Origin: Burkholderiales bacterium
Lineage (GTDB): Bacteria > Pseudomonadota > Gammaproteobacteria > Burkholderiales > SG8-41
Assembly: GCA_036555035.1 (NCBI GenBank)
Contig: DATBMB010000056.1
Coordinates: forward strand, 1,267-65,266
Direction: 5' to 3'
Length of the DNA: 64,000 bases
The position numbers and the translations under genes are program-made. A model generated the notes under the pieces. It made no database searches and was not told where the DNA came from. It was given only the letters and a program-made list of their open reading frames with translations. Below, piece by piece: positions 27,575-32,609 of this stretch; the stretch's first letter is position 1; each line of letters begins with the position of its first letter.

Positions 27575-27627
27575 GGAAAAGGTGTCAGGAACCTTTTCGC
27601 CGCGAAAAGGTTCCTGACACCTTTTCC
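27575..27627. repeat. 53-nt near-perfect palindrome (26-nt arms, 1-nt centre) between convergent nrfA and the first radical SAM gene; likely a bidirectional terminator or REP-like element
   Basis: GGAAAAGGTGTCAGGAACCTTTTCGC, then c, then GCGAAAAGGTTCCTGACACCTTTTCC. It starts 13 nt after the nrfA stop and contains the last 14 sense codons plus the stop codon of the radical SAM gene. Confidence 0.6.
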
Positions 27628-28571
27628 AAGGACCAGGTCTCGTTGGCGTGCCGAAGGAGGCCCGGGTCCGAGCGGCACGCCTCGATGAACTCGCGCACTT
27701 CGCGCGAGCGCCAGGCCTCACGGTAGGCGTTCCAGGCCTCCTCCAGAGAGTCGCTACGCAGGTCGGCGGACGCGAACGGCAGCGCGTTCAGGAGCTTCAC
27801 CTTTCCGTTTGGGACCACCAGCAGCATCGCCTGCGGGCTCGCGAGCCGCTCCTCCAGTTCGGTGAGGATGTCCCACGGGTAGATTGAGAGCCCGGTCGCC
27901 GCTGCGCGGGATTTCGCGTGATCGCGTAGCGCCTCAACCGCCCCCTGCCAGTCGCGTTCCGAGCAGGCCAGCTTGTCCCAGGTAGCCGCCGCGCGCCCGA
28001 GGCGCATCAGCGGCCCGGTGACAAAGGTGCTGCAGCCCAGCTCGACCGCCAGGTCGTAGGTGCCGACCGCATCGCGGATATTCCACCGCGTGGGAACGAA
28101 CACGAGCTGGGGCGCGAGGCCGCGGACTGCCAGCCGTCGGATGGCTCCAATAGCCGCATCGAAGCTCGATCCCGGGCGCACGCGCTCGTGCATCTCGGCC
28201 GTTGCGCCGTCCACCGACACCTGCACGCATTGGACCTTCAGCCGCGCCAGGCGCGCGGCTGCGGCGTCATCGATATGAGACCCGTCAGTCTCGATTTTCA
28301 GGGCGACGCCACTCGCCGCGAGTAGCTCGGCAAGCTCCCAGAAATGGGAGACCCCAAGCGGCTCGCCCCCGCCGAAAGCGACATACGGGATGCCGGAGGC
28401 GACGATGTGGCGACCGAGCGCCAGCGCCTCGGCGCGCGTCAGCTCATCCGGCCAGGCCTTGTCGGGGCCGGATTCCTCGCAGCAGGTGACGCAGCGGGCC
28501 CCGCAGCGGTTGGTCAGCTGCCAGGCAAGAAAAAGGGGCGCGCGGTATTCGGTTACCGCGCGCCCCGGCAT
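27585..28571 (-). CDS. Radical SAM enzyme, PqqE/MftC-like, cysteine-poor C-terminal domain (paralog 1)
   Basis: APLFLAWQLTNRCGARCVTCCEESGPDK contains the CX3CX2C motif. Other matches are AFGGGEPL, LKIETDG, VQVSVDG and the C-terminal LLVVPNGKVKLLNALPFASADLRSDSLEEAWNAYREAW. I chose the ATG at 28571, preceded by GAGGTGG. Confidence 0.85.
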   Translation of the reverse strand: MPGRAVTEYRAPLFLAWQLTNRCGARCVTCCEESGPDKAWPDELTRAEALALGRHIVASGIPYVAFGGGEPLGVSHFWELAELLAASGVALKIETDGSHIDDAAAARLARLKVQCVQVSVDGATAEMHERVRPGSSFDAAIGAIRRLAVRGLAPQLVFVPTRWNIRDAVGTYDLAVELGCSTFVTGPLMRLGRAAATWDKLACSERDWQGAVEALRDHAKSRAAATGLSIYPWDILTELEERLASPQAMLLVVPNGKVKLLNALPFASADLRSDSLEEAWNAYREAWRSREVREFIEACRSDPGLLRHANETWSLEKVSGTFSRRKGS

Positions 28572-28638: not shown

Positions 28639-28797
28639 TCAGGTGAAGCGGATGTACGGCTGGGCCATGACCTGCTCGGAAACGTCCTCCATCTTCGGCG
28701 TTTCCCAGTTCAGGCGCTCGGCCGGCTTGATCTTCTGGGCCTTCTCTTCCTGTTCCGTCTTTTCGCCCTGCTGCAGGTTCACTTTCATGTCGCCCAT
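28639..28797 (-). CDS. 52-aa candidate precursor peptide (PqqA-like C-terminal core)
   Basis: The ATG at 28797 is preceded by a strong AGGAGG 5 nt upstream. The peptide is MGDMKVNLQQGEKTEQEEKAQKIKPAERLNWETPKMEDVSEQVMAQPYIRFT. It is wedged between two radical SAM genes, and a PqqD-like gene lies in the same operon. Confidence 0.65.
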   Translation of the reverse strand: MGDMKVNLQQGEKTEQEEKAQKIKPAERLNWETPKMEDVSEQVMAQPYIRFT

Positions 28798-28811: not shown

Positions 28812-29771
28812 TCAAATTTGCGAAATCGCCAACCGGCGCCAACCATTGGCATCGGCATGCTGCAATTCATCCCCGCTCGCGCGGCGGACCGCACCTCGCA
28901 TCGCCTCGTCCCGCCAGGCGCCGCGGTATGCCGCCCACGCCTGCGCCAGGCTGTCGCGCCGCAGGTCGGCGCATATCTGCGGGAGCGCCGCCGCGACCTT
29001 CACCCACCCGTTGGGAAGCACCAGCAACGTCGCCGGAGCCTCGTCCAGGCTTGCACTCAGCGCCTCGCCCAACGTGAAGGGAGAATAGCAGAATTCCATC
29101 CGCCCTCCAAGATTGCGGGCCTCCCGTTCGAGCAGATCCCGGAAATCTCGATACTGTCCGGCAGCCGGTTCGAGCCGGTCCCACAGGCGCGCCGCGGTCC
29201 CGACCCTCATCAGCTTGCCGGTATTGAACCGGAACGCGCCCAGCCCCGCCGCGCGCTGGATCACCGCCCCGGCTTCGTGAATATTAAGGCGCGTCGGTGC
29301 AAATGTGATCTCCAGGGGCAAGCCCGCCGCCCGCACCGCCCGGCACGCCGCATGCGCCTTCTCGAGCGAGCCGCCCGGGCGCTGGCGCCCATAGACCTCC
29401 TGGCTGTCGCCATCGAGGCTCACCTGGATTGAGCGGACCGGCAGCCGGGCGAGTCTCTCTGCGATGGCGGTATCGAGCCGCTGGCCATTGGTTTCGATCT
29501 TGAGCTGCACGCCACCCGCCCCGAGGGCTTCCGCGAGCCGGAAGAAGTGCGGCACCACCAGCGGCTCTCCGCCGCACAGCATGACGTACGGCACCTCGTT
29601 GCGGATGATCTCGACCACGACCCCCATAGCCTCCTCTGCATCCAGCTCGTCCGGGAGGCGCTTGCCGGGCGCCGAATCGGTGCAGCAGTGCAGGCACGCG
29701 AGATCGCAGTCGCGCGTGATCTGCCACGAGACGAAGAGGGGTGCTCGCAGGCTGTCGATCCGGTTTTCCAT
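28812..29771 (-). CDS. Radical SAM enzyme, PqqE/MftC-like, cysteine-poor C-terminal domain (paralog 2)
   Basis: The ATG at 29771 gives MENRIDSLRAPLFVSWQITRDCDLACLHCCTDSAPGK. Other matches are LCGGEPL, LKIETNG, IQVSLDG and LLVLPNGWVKVAAALPQICADLRRDSLAQAWAAYRGAW. The listed 668-aa ORF is an upstream extension that overlaps the prenyltransferase gene in another frame. Confidence 0.85.
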   Translation of the reverse strand: MENRIDSLRAPLFVSWQITRDCDLACLHCCTDSAPGKRLPDELDAEEAMGVVVEIIRNEVPYVMLCGGEPLVVPHFFRLAEALGAGGVQLKIETNGQRLDTAIAERLARLPVRSIQVSLDGDSQEVYGRQRPGGSLEKAHAACRAVRAAGLPLEITFAPTRLNIHEAGAVIQRAAGLGAFRFNTGKLMRVGTAARLWDRLEPAAGQYRDFRDLLEREARNLGGRMEFCYSPFTLGEALSASLDEAPATLLVLPNGWVKVAAALPQICADLRRDSLAQAWAAYRGAWRDEAMRGAVRRASGDELQHADANGWRRLAISQI

Positions 29772-29782
29772 GAGAGACGGGG

Positions 29783-30712
29783 TCAGCCCAGCAGGAGGCC
29801 CACGCCAAACAGCGTGACGGCGACCGCATAGCAGCCGATGATGGCGCGGATGGCAGGCACGAACTGGCGCGGGGCTTCGTAGGTGTGCAGGGCGATTCGC
29901 GCGCTTGTCAGGAGCAAAGGCAACGCCAGCAGCGCAGACAGGCACGCTACGGGAAAGACGCCGGTGGCGACACCGGCCGCGGCAGTGCAAAGCCCCGCCG
30001 CAGCAAGCGCGAGGTAGAGCCACACTCCGCGCCGCCGCCCCAGCCGCACGACGAGATTGCGTTTTCCCACGAGCCGGTCCTGGTGATAGTCGGGGATGGC
30101 GTTTACCACGGCGAGCGACATGATCAGGAATCCCGGCACCAGCGATGCCCAGAACGCACCCCACGAAAGCGCCCGGGTGTGGAGATAAAGGCTCCCCAGC
30201 ACCATCCACGGGCCATAGGACAACGCGATCACGGTTTCGCCGAGGCCGCGATAGGCCCAGCGAATGGGCGGCGCCACGTAAAAAATGGCAGCGAGTCCTC
30301 CGAGCACCGCGAACGCCAGGATCGGCCAGCCGCCCCGGTAGGTGAGATAAACGCCCACGCCCAGAGCGCCGGCAAACGCTGCCACGCCCAGCCACAGCAC
30401 CCACCCGGACATGGGCGCCTCCTCGTCCGGATTGAACACGCGATCGGTGCCCATCTGCGAATCGAAATACTCGTTGAACGCTTCGACCCCGATGACTGCA
30501 AGCACCACGCCGCCGAGTCCGCTCCAGAAGACACTTGCATTGAACGCGCCTTCCATCGCATGCGCCCAGGCAGCGCCCAGGAGGTAGGGCAGCAGCCCCG
30601 CATACAGAAAGAAACGGTAACGAACGAGGCTCGCAACCCGCAGCAGCACGCGCAACGGCGAGCGCTCCGCCCCGAGGCGCTGATGCGGCGGGGTCGTCAG
30701 AGATAGACCCAT
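29783..30712 (-). CDS. UbiA-superfamily aromatic prenyltransferase, MenA-like
   Basis: About 309 aa and polytopic. The first Asp-rich motif is FNEYFDSQMGTD. The second is PDYHQDRLVGKRNLVVRLG. Recalled MenA equivalents are NDYGDAVKGSD and D...D...GK.TL.VRLG. The ATG at 30712 overlaps the upstream radical SAM gene by 16 nt. Confidence 0.85.
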   Translation of the reverse strand: MGLSLTTPPHQRLGAERSPLRVLLRVASLVRYRFFLYAGLLPYLLGAAWAHAMEGAFNASVFWSGLGGVVLAVIGVEAFNEYFDSQMGTDRVFNPDEEAPMSGWVLWLGVAAFAGALGVGVYLTYRGGWPILAFAVLGGLAAIFYVAPPIRWAYRGLGETVIALSYGPWMVLGSLYLHTRALSWGAFWASLVPGFLIMSLAVVNAIPDYHQDRLVGKRNLVVRLGRRRGVWLYLALAAAGLCTAAAGVATGVFPVACLSALLALPLLLTSARIALHTYEAPRQFVPAIRAIIGCYAVAVTLFGVGLLLG

Positions 30713-31698
30713 TGGTGCAGCGTTGCAGTCTTGCGCGGATCCTGCGCCAGGTCCTCGACAAACTTCGCGACGCGCGGATCCTGCCACGCGCGCTGGAATC
30801 GCGCCCAGATCTCGCCAAGCGTCTGCCGCCGCAGGTCGCCGCACACGAACGGCAACGCGTTGATGAGCTTGACCAGGCCGTTGGGCAGCACGATCAGGAG
30901 CGCTGCCGGGTGATGCAGGCGATAGCGCAGTTCCTCGAGCAGCCCCATCTCGTGGAAATAGACCCGCATTCGGCCGCGGTATTCCTCGGTCTTGCCGTGA
31001 AGCACGGCGAAAAATTCATCGTACTGTGCATCGGAAGGCGCCATCCGGTGCCAGGTCTTGACGGCGTTGCCGGTATACATCGTGCGCCCGGTATAGAAGC
31101 TGTAGGCGCCGAGCTCGGCGGCGAGGTCCACTGCAGTGCCGATCTCGTGGGTGTTGAAGCACGTGGGTGAGTAGTTGATCTCGATCGGCACTCCCGCGGC
31201 GCCCAGATTGCGGATCCCTTGGACTGTCAGGTCGAAATCGCCCCGCACCCGCATGCGGTTGAAGGTCTCGCGCGAGGCGCCGTCCAGGCTCACCTGCACG
31301 GCTTTCACGCCCAGGCGCTTCAGGCGCTCGCAGTTCTCCGCAGAGAGATAGGCGCCGTTGGTCTCGATCTTGAGCTGACCGTTGCGCTTGCAGACATACT
31401 CCACCATATCGAAGAAGCGCGGATGCACCATCGGTTCCCCGCCCGAGAACGACAGATAGGGCACCTCGAGGTCGATTGCCTGCTCGAGAACGCTGAATAC
31501 CTGCTCGTCGCTCAGCTCGTCGTGGAACGCCTTGCCGGGGCCGCTTTCCTCGATGCAATGGAGGCAGGCGAGATTGCATTCGTTGGTCACCTGCCATGCG
31601 ATATAGAGCGGCGCGCCGAGATCTCCCGAGCCGGTCTCGGCTGGAGTGGATTCCGGCACCGGGGAGCGCACCCCAGCACCACTCACCTGCGTGGCCAC
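30697..31698 (-). CDS. Radical SAM enzyme, PqqE/MftC-like, cysteine-poor C-terminal domain (paralog 3)
   Basis: GAPLYIAWQVTNECNLACLHCIEESGPGK, FSGGEPM, LKIETNG, VQVSLDG and LLIVLPNGLVKLINALPFVCGDLRRQTLGEIWARFQRAW. I chose the GTG at 31698, with GAGGA 8 nt upstream and 4 nt after the PqqD-like stop. The listed TTG at 31740 is the alternative. Confidence 0.85.
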   Translation of the reverse strand: MATQVSGAGVRSPVPESTPAETGSGDLGAPLYIAWQVTNECNLACLHCIEESGPGKAFHDELSDEQVFSVLEQAIDLEVPYLSFSGGEPMVHPRFFDMVEYVCKRNGQLKIETNGAYLSAENCERLKRLGVKAVQVSLDGASRETFNRMRVRGDFDLTVQGIRNLGAAGVPIEINYSPTCFNTHEIGTAVDLAAELGAYSFYTGRTMYTGNAVKTWHRMAPSDAQYDEFFAVLHGKTEEYRGRMRVYFHEMGLLEELRYRLHHPAALLIVLPNGLVKLINALPFVCGDLRRQTLGEIWARFQRAWQDPRVAKFVEDLAQDPRKTATLHQWVYL

Positions 31699-31702
31699 CG
31701 CG

Positions 31703-31954
31703 TCAATCCTCGACCAGTCCCTTTTGCCGCAGCTCGGCAATGAACGCGACAGCCTCGCGCTCGATCGCCCCGCCTTCGTCGCGGAAGCGCGCCTTCAGTA
31801 GTCCCGGGATGTCACGCTCCGCGCGCCCCGCCTGGATCTCGCGCACCACCGCGGTCGCGGTGGGATTGAGGGTGTAGACCTTCTCGGAGCGCGTCTCGAA
31901 CAACACGCCGCCGAACTTCTCCTCGCGGAATTTGACGTACTGGGTGAGTTTCAT
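31703..31954 (-). CDS. PqqD/MftB-family peptide chaperone (RiPP recognition element)
   Basis: 83 aa, MKLTQYVKFREEKFGGVLFETRSEKVYTLNPTATAVVREIQAGR...AVAFIAELRQKGLVE, a typical PqqD-family pattern. The radical SAM gene follows immediately. Confidence 0.8.
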   Translation of the reverse strand: MKLTQYVKFREEKFGGVLFETRSEKVYTLNPTATAVVREIQAGRAERDIPGLLKARFRDEGGAIEREAVAFIAELRQKGLVED

Positions 31955-32011: not shown

Positions 32012-32530
32012 TCAGTACTTGCCGTGCACCTTGTAGATATAGTTCGTGAGCTCGCTGGTCTGCATCGCCATGCGGTTCACGATGAGGTGCACGACGCGGA
32101 AGATCGCGCGCATGACGCGGTAGACGATGACCGGCTCGCGCTCGAGCAGCGATTCCAGCTTCTCGCGCTCCAGGCACAGGACCTGAGTTGGCCCGGTCGC
32201 GCGCAACGCCGCGTAGTGCGGCCGGCCGTCCATGAAGCCGAGTTCCCCGGCGAGGTCGCCCTTGGTGAGGAGGTGCAGGTTGATCCACTGCCCGTCCGCC
32301 TCGACCTGCCGGGCCACCGCCAGCGCCCCGCCCACGATCACGTAGAGGTGATTGTCGCTGGCGCCCTGTCGGACGAGGACCTCCCCGTCCGCCAGGTTGC
32401 GCACAGACACCAGGTCGGCGAGAACGCTGCACTGGTCCCCGGTCAGCTCCACCGCCAGCGCCGCGTTGCGCAGCAGCTCCAGCTTTTGCTTGGTTTCCTG
32501 GCTCTTTCCCCGGGCAGCCGCGTCAGGCAC
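32012..32530 (-). CDS. Stand-alone cyclic-nucleotide-binding domain protein (no DNA-binding domain)
   Basis: 172 aa with the cNMP-binding beta-roll pattern GEVLVRQGASDNHLYVIVGGALAV...GDLAGELGFMDGRPHYAALRA. The GTG start is preceded by AAGGAG. Confidence 0.8.
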   Translation of the reverse strand: MPDAAARGKSQETKQKLELLRNAALAVELTGDQCSVLADLVSVRNLADGEVLVRQGASDNHLYVIVGGALAVARQVEADGQWINLHLLTKGDLAGELGFMDGRPHYAALRATGPTQVLCLEREKLESLLEREPVIVYRVMRAIFRVVHLIVNRMAMQTSELTNYIYKVHGKY

Positions 32531-32595: not shown

Positions 32596-32609
32596 TTGAT
32601 CTAGATCAA
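32596..32609. promoter_or_regulatory. Perfect FNR/Anr-type box TTGAT-N4-ATCAA in the divergent promoter region
   Basis: TTGATCTAGATCAA matches the consensus exactly. Its centre is about 72 nt from the cNMP-binding gene start and about 117 nt from the fumA ATG. On the minus strand a TAATAA/CATAAT hexamer lies 18-20 nt beyond the box, which fits class II geometry. Confidence 0.7.

Follow-up and report, generated by a model that had tools for sequence, protein, structure and literature searches.

A distinct MenA/UBIAD1-like prenyltransferase clade embedded in a peptide and radical SAM gene cassette, with a possible role in forming a peptide-derived membrane redox cofactor

In this study we analysed a 64,000-nucleotide stretch of DNA (hereafter the window) from a Burkholderiales bacterium (GenBank assembly GCA_036555035.1, contig DATBMB010000056.1), in which a MenA/UBIAD1-like polyprenyltransferase of the UbiA superfamily is predicted on the minus strand at 29783..30712. 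Judged by sequence comparison, this enzyme represents a distinct clade within the MenA/UBIAD1 branch of the superfamily, and members of the clade appear to be always embedded with the gene of a peptide of about 50 amino acids ending in [VI]MAQPYIRFT-COOH, the gene of a PqqD-type protein and those of one or three radical S-adenosylmethionine (SAM) enzymes. On balance we favour, by a modest degree, the interpretation that the enzyme polyprenylates an aromatic head group derived from the peptide and thereby gives rise to a membrane redox cofactor; a new lipid-tailed electron carrier is probable because the cassette occurs in bacteria which lack a known vitamin K2 pathway. The cassette is undescribed in the searchable literature, and no description of a UbiA-family enzyme within a peptide cassette containing PqqD and radical SAM genes was found in the full texts searched.

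The prenyltransferase frame extends from ATG 30712 to TGA 29783 and encodes 309 amino acids (aa). An alternative GTG is present upstream at 30844 in the open reading frame listing; ATG 30712 was accepted as the start because the 120 close homologues (81-97% identical) have a length of 308-313 aa and are aligned from residue 1. The protein carries the two Asp-rich motifs (NEYFD...GTD and DYHQD) that are predicted to bind Mg2+ and diphosphate in the UbiA superfamily, motif 1 being N80-E-Y-F-D84-S-Q-M-G88-T-D90 and motif 2 D208-Y-H-Q-D212-R-L-V-G216-K217-R-N-L-V-V-R223-L-G225. In a MAFFT alignment, FNEYFDSQMGTD of the prenyltransferase is aligned with ANDYGDAVKGSD of Escherichia coli K-12 MenA at motif 1, and NAIPDYHQDRLVGKRNLVVRLG with NNLRDINSDRENGKNTLVVRLG at motif 2; the spacing is unlike that of UbiA (INDCADRRF--D) or CtaB of the same genome. 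The spacing characteristic of MenA (N-D-Y-x-D-x3-G-x-D and D-x3-D-x3-G-K) is therefore present, with Glu instead of Asp at the second position of motif 1. Twelve residues, N80, Y82, F83, D84, G88, D90, D208, D212, G216, K217, R223 and G225, are unchanged across 22 diverse homologues, the most distant of them at 34% identity.

The assignment to the superfamily is supported by the Pfam UbiA family PF01040 (82.1 bits against a cut-off of 34.2, and 84.4 bits in the whole-genome search). According to the AlphaFold2 model (mean local confidence pLDDT 83.1, predicted template-modelling score pTM 0.81) the protein would adopt the polytopic, all-helical UbiA-type fold with about nine transmembrane helices, nine being counted in the model. 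The best match of the model in the Protein Data Bank (PDB) found by Foldseek was UBIAD1 (8djk_B, template-modelling scores 0.67/0.73), followed by DGGGP synthase and the UbiA homologues of A. pernix and A. fulgidus, and UBIAD1 was also the sole PDB match found by sequence. UBIAD1 is the animal orthologue of MenA. A reading made from the letters of the window (the sequence-only reading) had stated that both Asp-rich motifs follow the MenA pattern rather than those of UbiA or CyoE, and this was borne out by the spacing shared with E. coli MenA, by the MenA models standing at the top of the NCBIfam matches, by UBIAD1 as the nearest structure and by the outgroup position of UbiA and CtaB in the phylogenetic tree. 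The 16-nucleotide overlap with the preceding radical SAM gene, described in the same reading, was likewise recovered (TGA 30699-30697, prenyltransferase ATG 30712-30710).

The resemblance to MenA does not make the enzyme a member of the MenA group. The best NCBIfam matches are all MenA models, and each of them remains below its curated cut-off: the equivalog models gave 70.5 against 102.15 bits (TIGR00751) and 98.8 against 264 (NF004751), the further ones 84.2 against 277 (NF004749) and 81.8 against 225 (TIGR02235). Identity to E. coli MenA is 23%. A maximum likelihood tree of 70 sequences was built by a quick IQ-TREE search with SH-aLRT branch supports and no bootstraps, from 57 representatives of an exhaustive search of 1.84 billion proteins, E. 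coli MenA, the MenA of a true men operon found in one carrier of the cassette (genome G010), and UbiA and CtaB of the window's genome as outgroup; references for MqnP, chlorophyll synthase and DGGGP synthase were left out. In this tree the cassette prenyltransferases formed a clade of their own with 22 rows (SH-aLRT 99), containing both of the cassette types described below, and E. coli MenA and the G010 men-operon MenA stood in a separate clade (SH-aLRT 99); the enzyme is thus not grouped with validated MenA. Placement in an unrelated UbiA subfamily, which the sequence-only reading had named as an outcome that would speak against it, was not seen with UbiA and CtaB as the outgroup.

Compared with MenA and UBIAD1, the cassette enzyme shares the UbiA fold with nine transmembrane helices and the motifs N-[DE]-Y-x-D-x3-G-x-D and D-x3-D-x3-G-K-x-x-L-x-V-R-L-G. 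It differs from MenA in the Glu at the second position of motif 1, which is also found in some non-cassette relatives, in the N-terminal motif R-Y-R-F-F-L-[YF]-A-G-L-x-P-Y shared by the cassette enzymes, and in its genomic setting, where any pathway to 1,4-dihydroxy-2-naphthoate (DHNA), the substrate of MenA, is missing and radical SAM, PqqD and peptide genes are always adjacent. Additionally, the loop following motif 1 is in the alignment about 14 residues shorter in the cassette clade than in its nearest non-cassette relatives; in UbiA-family structures the region after motif 1 caps the active site. Homologues are annotated in IMG as 1,4-dihydroxy-2-naphthoate octaprenyltransferase, and elsewhere simply as prenyltransferase.

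In the window the prenyltransferase is the third of six genes, all on the minus strand, in an arrangement that we call type A: PqqD-like protein, radical SAM 1, prenyltransferase, radical SAM 2, a peptide of about 50 aa and radical SAM 3. The first gene (31703..31954) encodes an 83-aa PqqD-like protein, a candidate peptide chaperone or recognition element of a ribosomally made and post-translationally modified peptide (RiPP) system, which matches PF05402 with 41.6 bits against a cut-off of 23.4 and occupies the same position in related loci. Radical SAM 1 (30697..31698) likely starts at GTG 31698, 4 nucleotides past the PqqD stop, and matches PF04055 with 84 bits and the mycofactocin enzyme MftC with 124 bits against 265, and gave no SPASM match; its last 16 nucleotides are shared with the start of the prenyltransferase frame, and the same overlap exists in the relative L084. 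Radical SAM 2 (28812..29771, PF04055 79.6 bits) is a paralogue with the CX3CX2C motif and further conserved Cys, whose ATG at 29771 lies 11 nucleotides past the prenyltransferase stop. The 52-aa precursor peptide MGDMKVNLQQGEKTEQEEKAQKIKPAERLNWETPKMEDVSEQVMAQPYIRFT is encoded at 28639..28797 with an AGGAGG 4 nucleotides 5' of its ATG; it has a variable leader and an invariant C-terminal part, had no Pfam or NCBIfam match, and is annotated in Usitatibacter palustris as a hypothetical protein. The last gene, a further paralogue at 27585..28571 (radical SAM 3, PF04055 67 bits, start at ATG 28571 or GTG 28583), is kept in related loci and is convergent with nrfA. The three radical SAM paralogues are 38-43% identical to one another, and the best NCBIfam match of all three is MftC, with 119-127 bits against a cut-off of 265. 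They have neither a match to the SPASM domain (PF13186) nor the SPASM Cys pattern, and in each of them 3-5 further Cys are conserved.

The arrangement is strictly conserved. Eighty related genome loci were found, in taxa that include Casimicrobiaceae, Usitatibacter, Steroidobacteraceae, Caldimonas, Rhodopila and Acidocella, that is, in Beta-, Gamma- and Alphaproteobacteria, and all six genes stand in the same order in 67 of the 68 loci that could be evaluated. The peptide terminus EDVSEQVMAQPYIRFT, directly followed by the stop codon, is kept in about 75 loci of genomes; metagenomes add 80 loci, which were retrieved by requiring the MAQPYIRFT core itself. The consensus tail of the type A genome loci, W-E-T-P-K-[LM]-E-D-V-S-E-Q-V-M-A-Q-P-Y-I-R-F-T followed by the stop, is essentially invariant. 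A variable leader with a conserved core, a PqqD-type recognition domain and adjacent modifying enzymes are the general marks of a RiPP system, and all of these are predicted here from the genes. Only the six cassette genes are universal: no conserved methyltransferase, decarboxylase, peptidase or oxidase adjoins them, and no model of NCBIfam release 20 claims any of the six proteins. The sole evaluable exception in gene order is locus L014 (MFD06435.bin.2.8), where the cassette ends after the prenyltransferase, without radical SAM 2, peptide and radical SAM 3, and where radical SAM 1 matches only partly; decay, rearrangement or an error of long-read assembly may lie behind this gap.

A minimal sister arrangement (type B) consists of a 45-48-aa peptide, PqqD, one radical SAM enzyme and the prenyltransferase, in this order (L089, L090, L091). 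Its prenyltransferases are 40-46% identical to, and in the same clade as, those of type A, and its peptides end in W-[EQ]-[KT]-P-K-L-E-D-V-S-[GA]-K-[VI]-M-A-Q-P-Y-I-R-F-T, with the same core. Of the three paralogues in the window, radical SAM 1 is nearest to the single type B enzyme (41-46% identical) and is taken as its orthologue, and both are located between PqqD and the prenyltransferase. In order to avoid the bias of a prenyltransferase query, metagenome contigs were scanned with the back-translated MAQPYIRFT-stop; the 80 loci retrieved in this way comprised 60 with three radical SAM genes, 17 with one and 3 others (one variant and two orphan peptide genes). Where enough flanking DNA was available for evaluation, the prenyltransferase was present in 20 of 21 type A and in all five type B loci. 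The GC content of the type B loci ranges from 30% to 69%, therefore the system spans very distant lineages. From this strong linkage (67/68 genome loci, 20/21 and 5/5 metagenome loci) we infer that the aromatic substrate would be generated by the neighbouring enzymes, possibly from the peptide, as the sequence-only reading had suggested.

Further features of the type B loci concern their surroundings. In L177 a polyprenyl-diphosphate synthase gene (PF00348, 218 bits) overlaps the prenyltransferase stop, and L089 has a synthase gene within the same block; an NqrF-like gene, the last one of an nqr/rnf-like operon, lies directly 5' of the peptide gene in L089, L177 and L181. A response regulator and histidine kinase pair follows the cassette in L089 and L177. 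In two metagenome contigs (L147, L183) a peptide with the full WxxPxhE[DE]V...MAQPYIRFT is encoded and no PqqD, radical SAM or prenyltransferase gene is found within 3.7-5.7 kb downstream, the upstream gene of L147 being the same as in the intact type B locus L184; these are putative orphan precursor copies or remnants of lost cassettes.

Genes of the known menaquinone pathways were searched for genome-wide. The assembly of the window is a Burkholderiales metagenome-assembled genome (MAG) of 3.2 Mb, and most of the other carriers are MAGs as well. Its UbiA-family genes are CtaB, UbiA and the cassette prenyltransferase only, and in this 86.6% complete genome no protein with the MqnA/D fold was detected and neither MenD nor MenB was found above the cut-off. 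The observation that no other men or mqn gene is visible in the window can consequently be extended to the whole assembly. A MenB/BadI-like crotonase (contig C92:22627-23397; MenB 238 bits against a cut-off of 343, BadI 210 bits), for which a similar protein exists only in G010, was considered and rejected; this paralogue is regarded as lying outside the system because it is below the cut-off and shared with one other carrier only, and it is also unlinked to the cassette. Among 25 sampled carriers, MenD and MenB were above the cut-off in one (G010, with the true men operon) and MqnA/D in none, so that all three are missing in 24 of the 25. No protein reached the MenA cut-off in 23 of them, only G010 and G021 having one, and the cassette prenyltransferase scored below it in every carrier. 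Two carriers, Usitatibacter palustris and Betaproteobacteria bacterium GR16-43, are represented by closed, 99-100% complete genomes, and MenD and MqnA/D are absent from both. A complete men or mqn pathway elsewhere in the genome, which according to the sequence-only reading would have pointed to an ordinary menaquinone role, was therefore looked for genome-wide and not found in the window's genome or in 24 of 25 carriers. A pathway that produces DHNA, as is proper to MenA, does not accompany the cassette, and in the lack of men and mqn genes its prenyltransferase has no known source of DHNA.

Other MenA-like proteins were observed in a few carriers. G021 contains an extra MenA (L093, G021:C4:495938-496768; 161 bits, above the cut-off) in a genome without MenD, MenB or Mqn; its motif 1 reads NLQNDVGYTERGGE, with the second Asp lost; this MenA is an orphan. 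In Usitatibacter there is a second UbiA-family protein that resembles MenA (L239 of U. palustris, G072:C1:1946795-1947376, and L094, G015:C8), with 76 bits for TIGR00751 and 149 bits for NF004751, both below the cut-off, and with a degenerate motif 1, LFTDTHE in place of N-D-x-x-D.

Comparison with the known peptide-derived cofactor systems places the cassette near to them and inside none. With the core of the pyrroloquinoline quinone (PQQ) system (PqqA, PqqD, PqqE) it shares a short precursor, a stand-alone chaperone of the PqqD fold (PF05402) and a PqqE/MftC-like radical SAM enzyme, furthermore a conserved aromatic residue near the C-terminus of the peptide and an invariance that is cofactor-like and not antibiotic-like. 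The leader W-x-x-P-x-h-x-[DE]-h presumably resembles that of PqqA, and the cassette peptide would have Met where PqqA has the cross-linked Glu. In contrast to PQQ, the peptide has no PqqA family match, the radical SAM enzymes reach 81, 59 and 46 bits with the PqqE model against a cut-off of 381 and are devoid of the SPASM Cys, PqqB, PqqC and PqqF are not encoded in the cassette, and its membrane prenyltransferase has no PQQ counterpart; the PqqD domain is the single defining PQQ feature found, and the cassette is no PQQ system. The likeness to mycofactocin (MftA, MftB, MftC) consists in MftC as top match, in a PqqD-like chaperone present in both, in the chemistry expected at the extreme C-terminus of the peptide and in a product that would be a peptide-derived redox cofactor. 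It is limited by the scores (MftC 119-127 against 265 bits, MftB 19.1 against 33), by the core MAQPYIRFT instead of ...GVY, by the absence of MftD, MftE, MftF and a SPASM domain, and by a tailoring enzyme which is a polyprenyltransferase and not a glycosyltransferase, and the cassette does not belong to the mycofactocin systems either. A precedent for ring building by radical SAM enzymes combined with prenylation by a UbiA-family enzyme is provided by the futalosine (Mqn) route, where the radical SAM enzymes MqnE and MqnC build the naphthoquinol ring anaerobically and a UbiA-family enzyme then prenylates it. The cassette differs from this route, since its carriers have no MqnA/D fold and its radical SAM enzymes are of the PqqE/MftC lineage and accompanied by a peptide and PqqD.

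Based on these features the following sequence of events is proposed. The PqqD-like protein would bind the leader (W-x-x-P-x-h-E-[DE]-V) and present the core to radical SAM 1, which, in this lineage jointly with paralogues 2 and 3, would remodel the core Tyr and/or Phe into a hydroquinone-like head group. The prenyltransferase, having intact Mg-diphosphate motifs and a shortened loop, would move a long polyprenyl chain from polyprenyl diphosphate to this head group, which would yield a redox carrier of low potential that resides in the membrane. Such a carrier might serve quinol-dependent anaerobic respiration, in the window by means of FrdABCD and NrfHA and elsewhere through type-B fumarate reductases, NapC/NirT-type quinol dehydrogenases, Mtr conduits and NQR.

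Several observations weigh against a peptide-derived carrier. The cassette encodes no peptidase, oxidase or hydroxylase which could excise and oxidise the head group, and the PQQ and mycofactocin pathways need enzymes of this kind. In type B one radical SAM enzyme would have to do all of the ring chemistry, and the radical SAM proteins are without the auxiliary-cluster Cys of SPASM typical of their peptide-modifying relatives. G010 carries both a genuine men operon and the cassette, therefore the cassette product is there either redundant with menaquinone or different from it. Control by FNR, discussed below, was rejected as a general property of the cassette, a suitable box being found in only 9 of 74 loci. 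Finally, the carriers are mostly MAGs and the genome of the window is 86.6% complete.

A bolder version, in which the product is (demethyl)menaquinone itself and the cassette a third, peptide-derived route to vitamin K2, is conceivable and in our judgement rather doubtful. The radical SAM enzymes would in this case carve a naphthoquinol-type or a new head group from MAQPYIRFT, to be polyprenylated by the MenA-like enzyme. This product would be identical with the menaquinone in the membrane and at the QA site of Rhodopila globiformis, and in the organism of the window it would feed FrdABCD and NrfHA. R. globiformis DSM 161 (G011) carries the full cassette (locus L043). Its membranes contain ubiquinone (UQ), rhodoquinone (RQ) and menaquinone (MK) (PMC9640540, PMC12542754), menaquinone was modelled at QA in the 2.24 Å structure of its light-harvesting 1-reaction centre complex (PMC9640540), and MK-9 is cited for this species (PMC12542754). 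No MenD, MenB or MqnA/D was detected in the R. globiformis draft genome. A MenB-like match of 318 bits, near the threshold, was rejected, as it is BadI (464 bits) in a badH/aliA/aliB-type cyclohexanecarboxylate cluster. The sole MenA-like protein of the draft genome, which has five UbiA-family genes, is the cassette enzyme; the other four were assigned by visual inspection of motifs and architecture in the translations, as CtaB, UbiA, BchG and a HAD-fused phosphoribosyltransferase-like protein. On this circumstantial ground the cassette enzyme would be the only candidate menaquinone prenyltransferase of R. globiformis, unless the draft assembly hides a pathway. If it hides none, the head group would have to come from an unrecognised route, for which the neighbouring genes of the peptide and the radical SAM enzymes are the first to be considered. 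The gap in the quinone biosynthesis of R. globiformis appears to stand apart from the way the cassette is interpreted, and the example of G010 indicates that a men operon and the cassette are not mutually exclusive. In the supplementary tables of a 2026 quinone survey none of the six genera looked for, Rhodopila included, was found, and no quinone data for Usitatibacter were found in the searched literature.

The main rival of the peptide-derived carrier is lipidation of the peptide itself, which we hold to be unlikely. The whole or trimmed peptide, cross-linked by the radical SAM enzymes, would receive a prenyl or polyprenyl chain either at Tyr (ring or oxygen) or at the carboxylate of its C-terminus, the latter in a manner comparable to the esterification by chlorophyll synthase, and a membrane-anchored peptide would result instead of a quinone-type carrier, acting for instance as a signal, as part of the envelope or as a protein-like redox tag. 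The lack of a peptidase or oxidase in the cassette agrees with this explanation, and the invariance of nine consecutive core residues and of the free C-terminus fits recognition of a peptide better than the use of one or two residues. The loss of about 14 residues after motif 1 might open the site for a bulky acceptor; moreover, non-aromatic acceptors are established in the UbiA family (chlorophyll, DGGGP and heme O synthases), and DGGGP synthase is among the fold matches. However, the enzyme is specifically similar to MenA and UBIAD1, which are aromatic quinol prenyltransferases, and a lipidated peptide would offer no obvious reason why respiratory enzymes that reduce quinones or oxidise quinols should so persistently accompany the cassette, and would leave the menaquinone puzzle of R. 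globiformis unexplained.

It is still less probable that the prenyltransferase and the peptide are linked without acting in sequence, the enzyme prenylating scavenged DHNA or a small aromatic compound from an unrecognised route and the peptide giving a separate soluble cofactor or accessory factor. DHNA salvage by MenA alone is found in some bacteria, e.g. in Streptococcus agalactiae, DHNA could be available in soil and wetland, both motifs are fully of the MenA type, and G010 keeps both the men operon and the cassette. This explanation is opposed by the conserved coupling, that is, the 16-nucleotide overlap with radical SAM 1 and the 11-nucleotide gap to radical SAM 2, by the near-absolute co-occurrence with the peptide in very distant lineages and in two architectures, and by the dedicated clade and the failed MenA cut-offs, which would be unexpected if DHNA were still the substrate. 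An ordinary MenA served by normal menaquinone pathway genes elsewhere in the genome can be dismissed as highly improbable, for in spite of the IMG annotation as DHNA octaprenyltransferase and of MenA models as top matches, MenD, MenB and MqnA/D were found neither in the window's genome nor in 24 of 25 carriers, MenD and MqnA/D are missing from the two complete genomes, every curated cut-off is failed (70.5 against 102 for TIGR00751, 98.8 against 264 for NF004751) and the enzyme stands in a clade apart (SH-aLRT 99) from the MenA of E. coli and of the G010 men operon, so that whole-genome family searches effectively refuted this role, in agreement with the sequence-only reading.

To our knowledge, all known isoprenoid quinones (UQ, MK, plastoquinone, RQ and their relatives) have head groups made from chorismate-derived small molecules, and all known peptide-derived cofactors (PQQ, mycofactocin) are soluble. 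The cassette as interpreted here would join isoprenoid quinones and ribosomal-peptide cofactors, for which there is no precedent, and would imply that there is either a further class of redox cofactor, derived from a peptide and anchored by a lipid, or an origin of menaquinone that has gone unrecognised. It could explain how Pseudomonadota which have ubiquinone only and lack Men and Mqn, and perhaps RquA, operate enzymes of the menaquinol type (FrdABCD, NrfH, NapC/CymA, Mtr) in soils and wetlands without oxygen, and how R. globiformis makes menaquinone without either known pathway. At present these genes are either labelled as ordinary MenA or passed over when quinones and anaerobic capacity are predicted from genomes. 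Since carriers are in culture (R. globiformis DSM 161, U. palustris Swamp67), the question is directly testable.

The surroundings of the cassette in the window are respiratory. On one side nrfHA is convergent with it, and on the other side an operon of fumA (class I fumarase), frdABCD and a DASS transporter gene is divergent. The promoter-proximal gene of the cassette operon (32012..32530, minus strand) encodes a stand-alone protein with a cyclic-nucleotide-binding domain, having weak matches to families of this domain; it is found 5' of PqqD only in L005, L006, L017 and L065, close relatives of the window, and is regarded as a lineage-specific addition outside the universal cassette because it is confined to them. 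A perfect FNR-type box, TTGATCTAGATCAA, lies at 32596..32609, where the promoters of the cassette operon and of fumA-frdABCD diverge; it is the sole match in the 64 kb, where 0.01 would be expected by chance. Over the loci as a whole, FNR-like boxes with at most one mismatch were found 5' of PqqD in 9 of 74, against about 2.5 expected.

Among the 80 genome loci the recurrent neighbours are single-anchor FrdCAB-type fumarate reductases (15-18 loci), NapC/NirT/NrfH-type quinol dehydrogenases (14), pyruvate:ferredoxin oxidoreductase (PFOR, 12-13), MtrA/MtrB-like proteins (11) and Coq10/RatA-like START proteins (about 10). Most of these enzymes trade electrons with the quinone pool and are classically partnered by quinones of low potential; PFOR works with ferredoxin, and for the Mtr conduit the only connection to the quinone pool is through quinol dehydrogenases of the NapC/CymA type. 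The Coq10/RatA-like START gene (PF03364, 113.8 bits) directly adjoins the cassette in some loci (e.g. L026:6070-6564 and L042:11078-11554). Proteins of the Coq10 type bind isoprenoid quinones; the adjacency may be a coincidence, since the gene is common in Proteobacteria.

The cassette is real and widespread but patchy: in an order-level sample it was present in 6 of 401 genomes, belonging to 5 of 168 genera. The locus was found in DNA metagenome runs only, with none from RNA, and the organism recurs in metagenomes of soil, wetland and rhizosphere.

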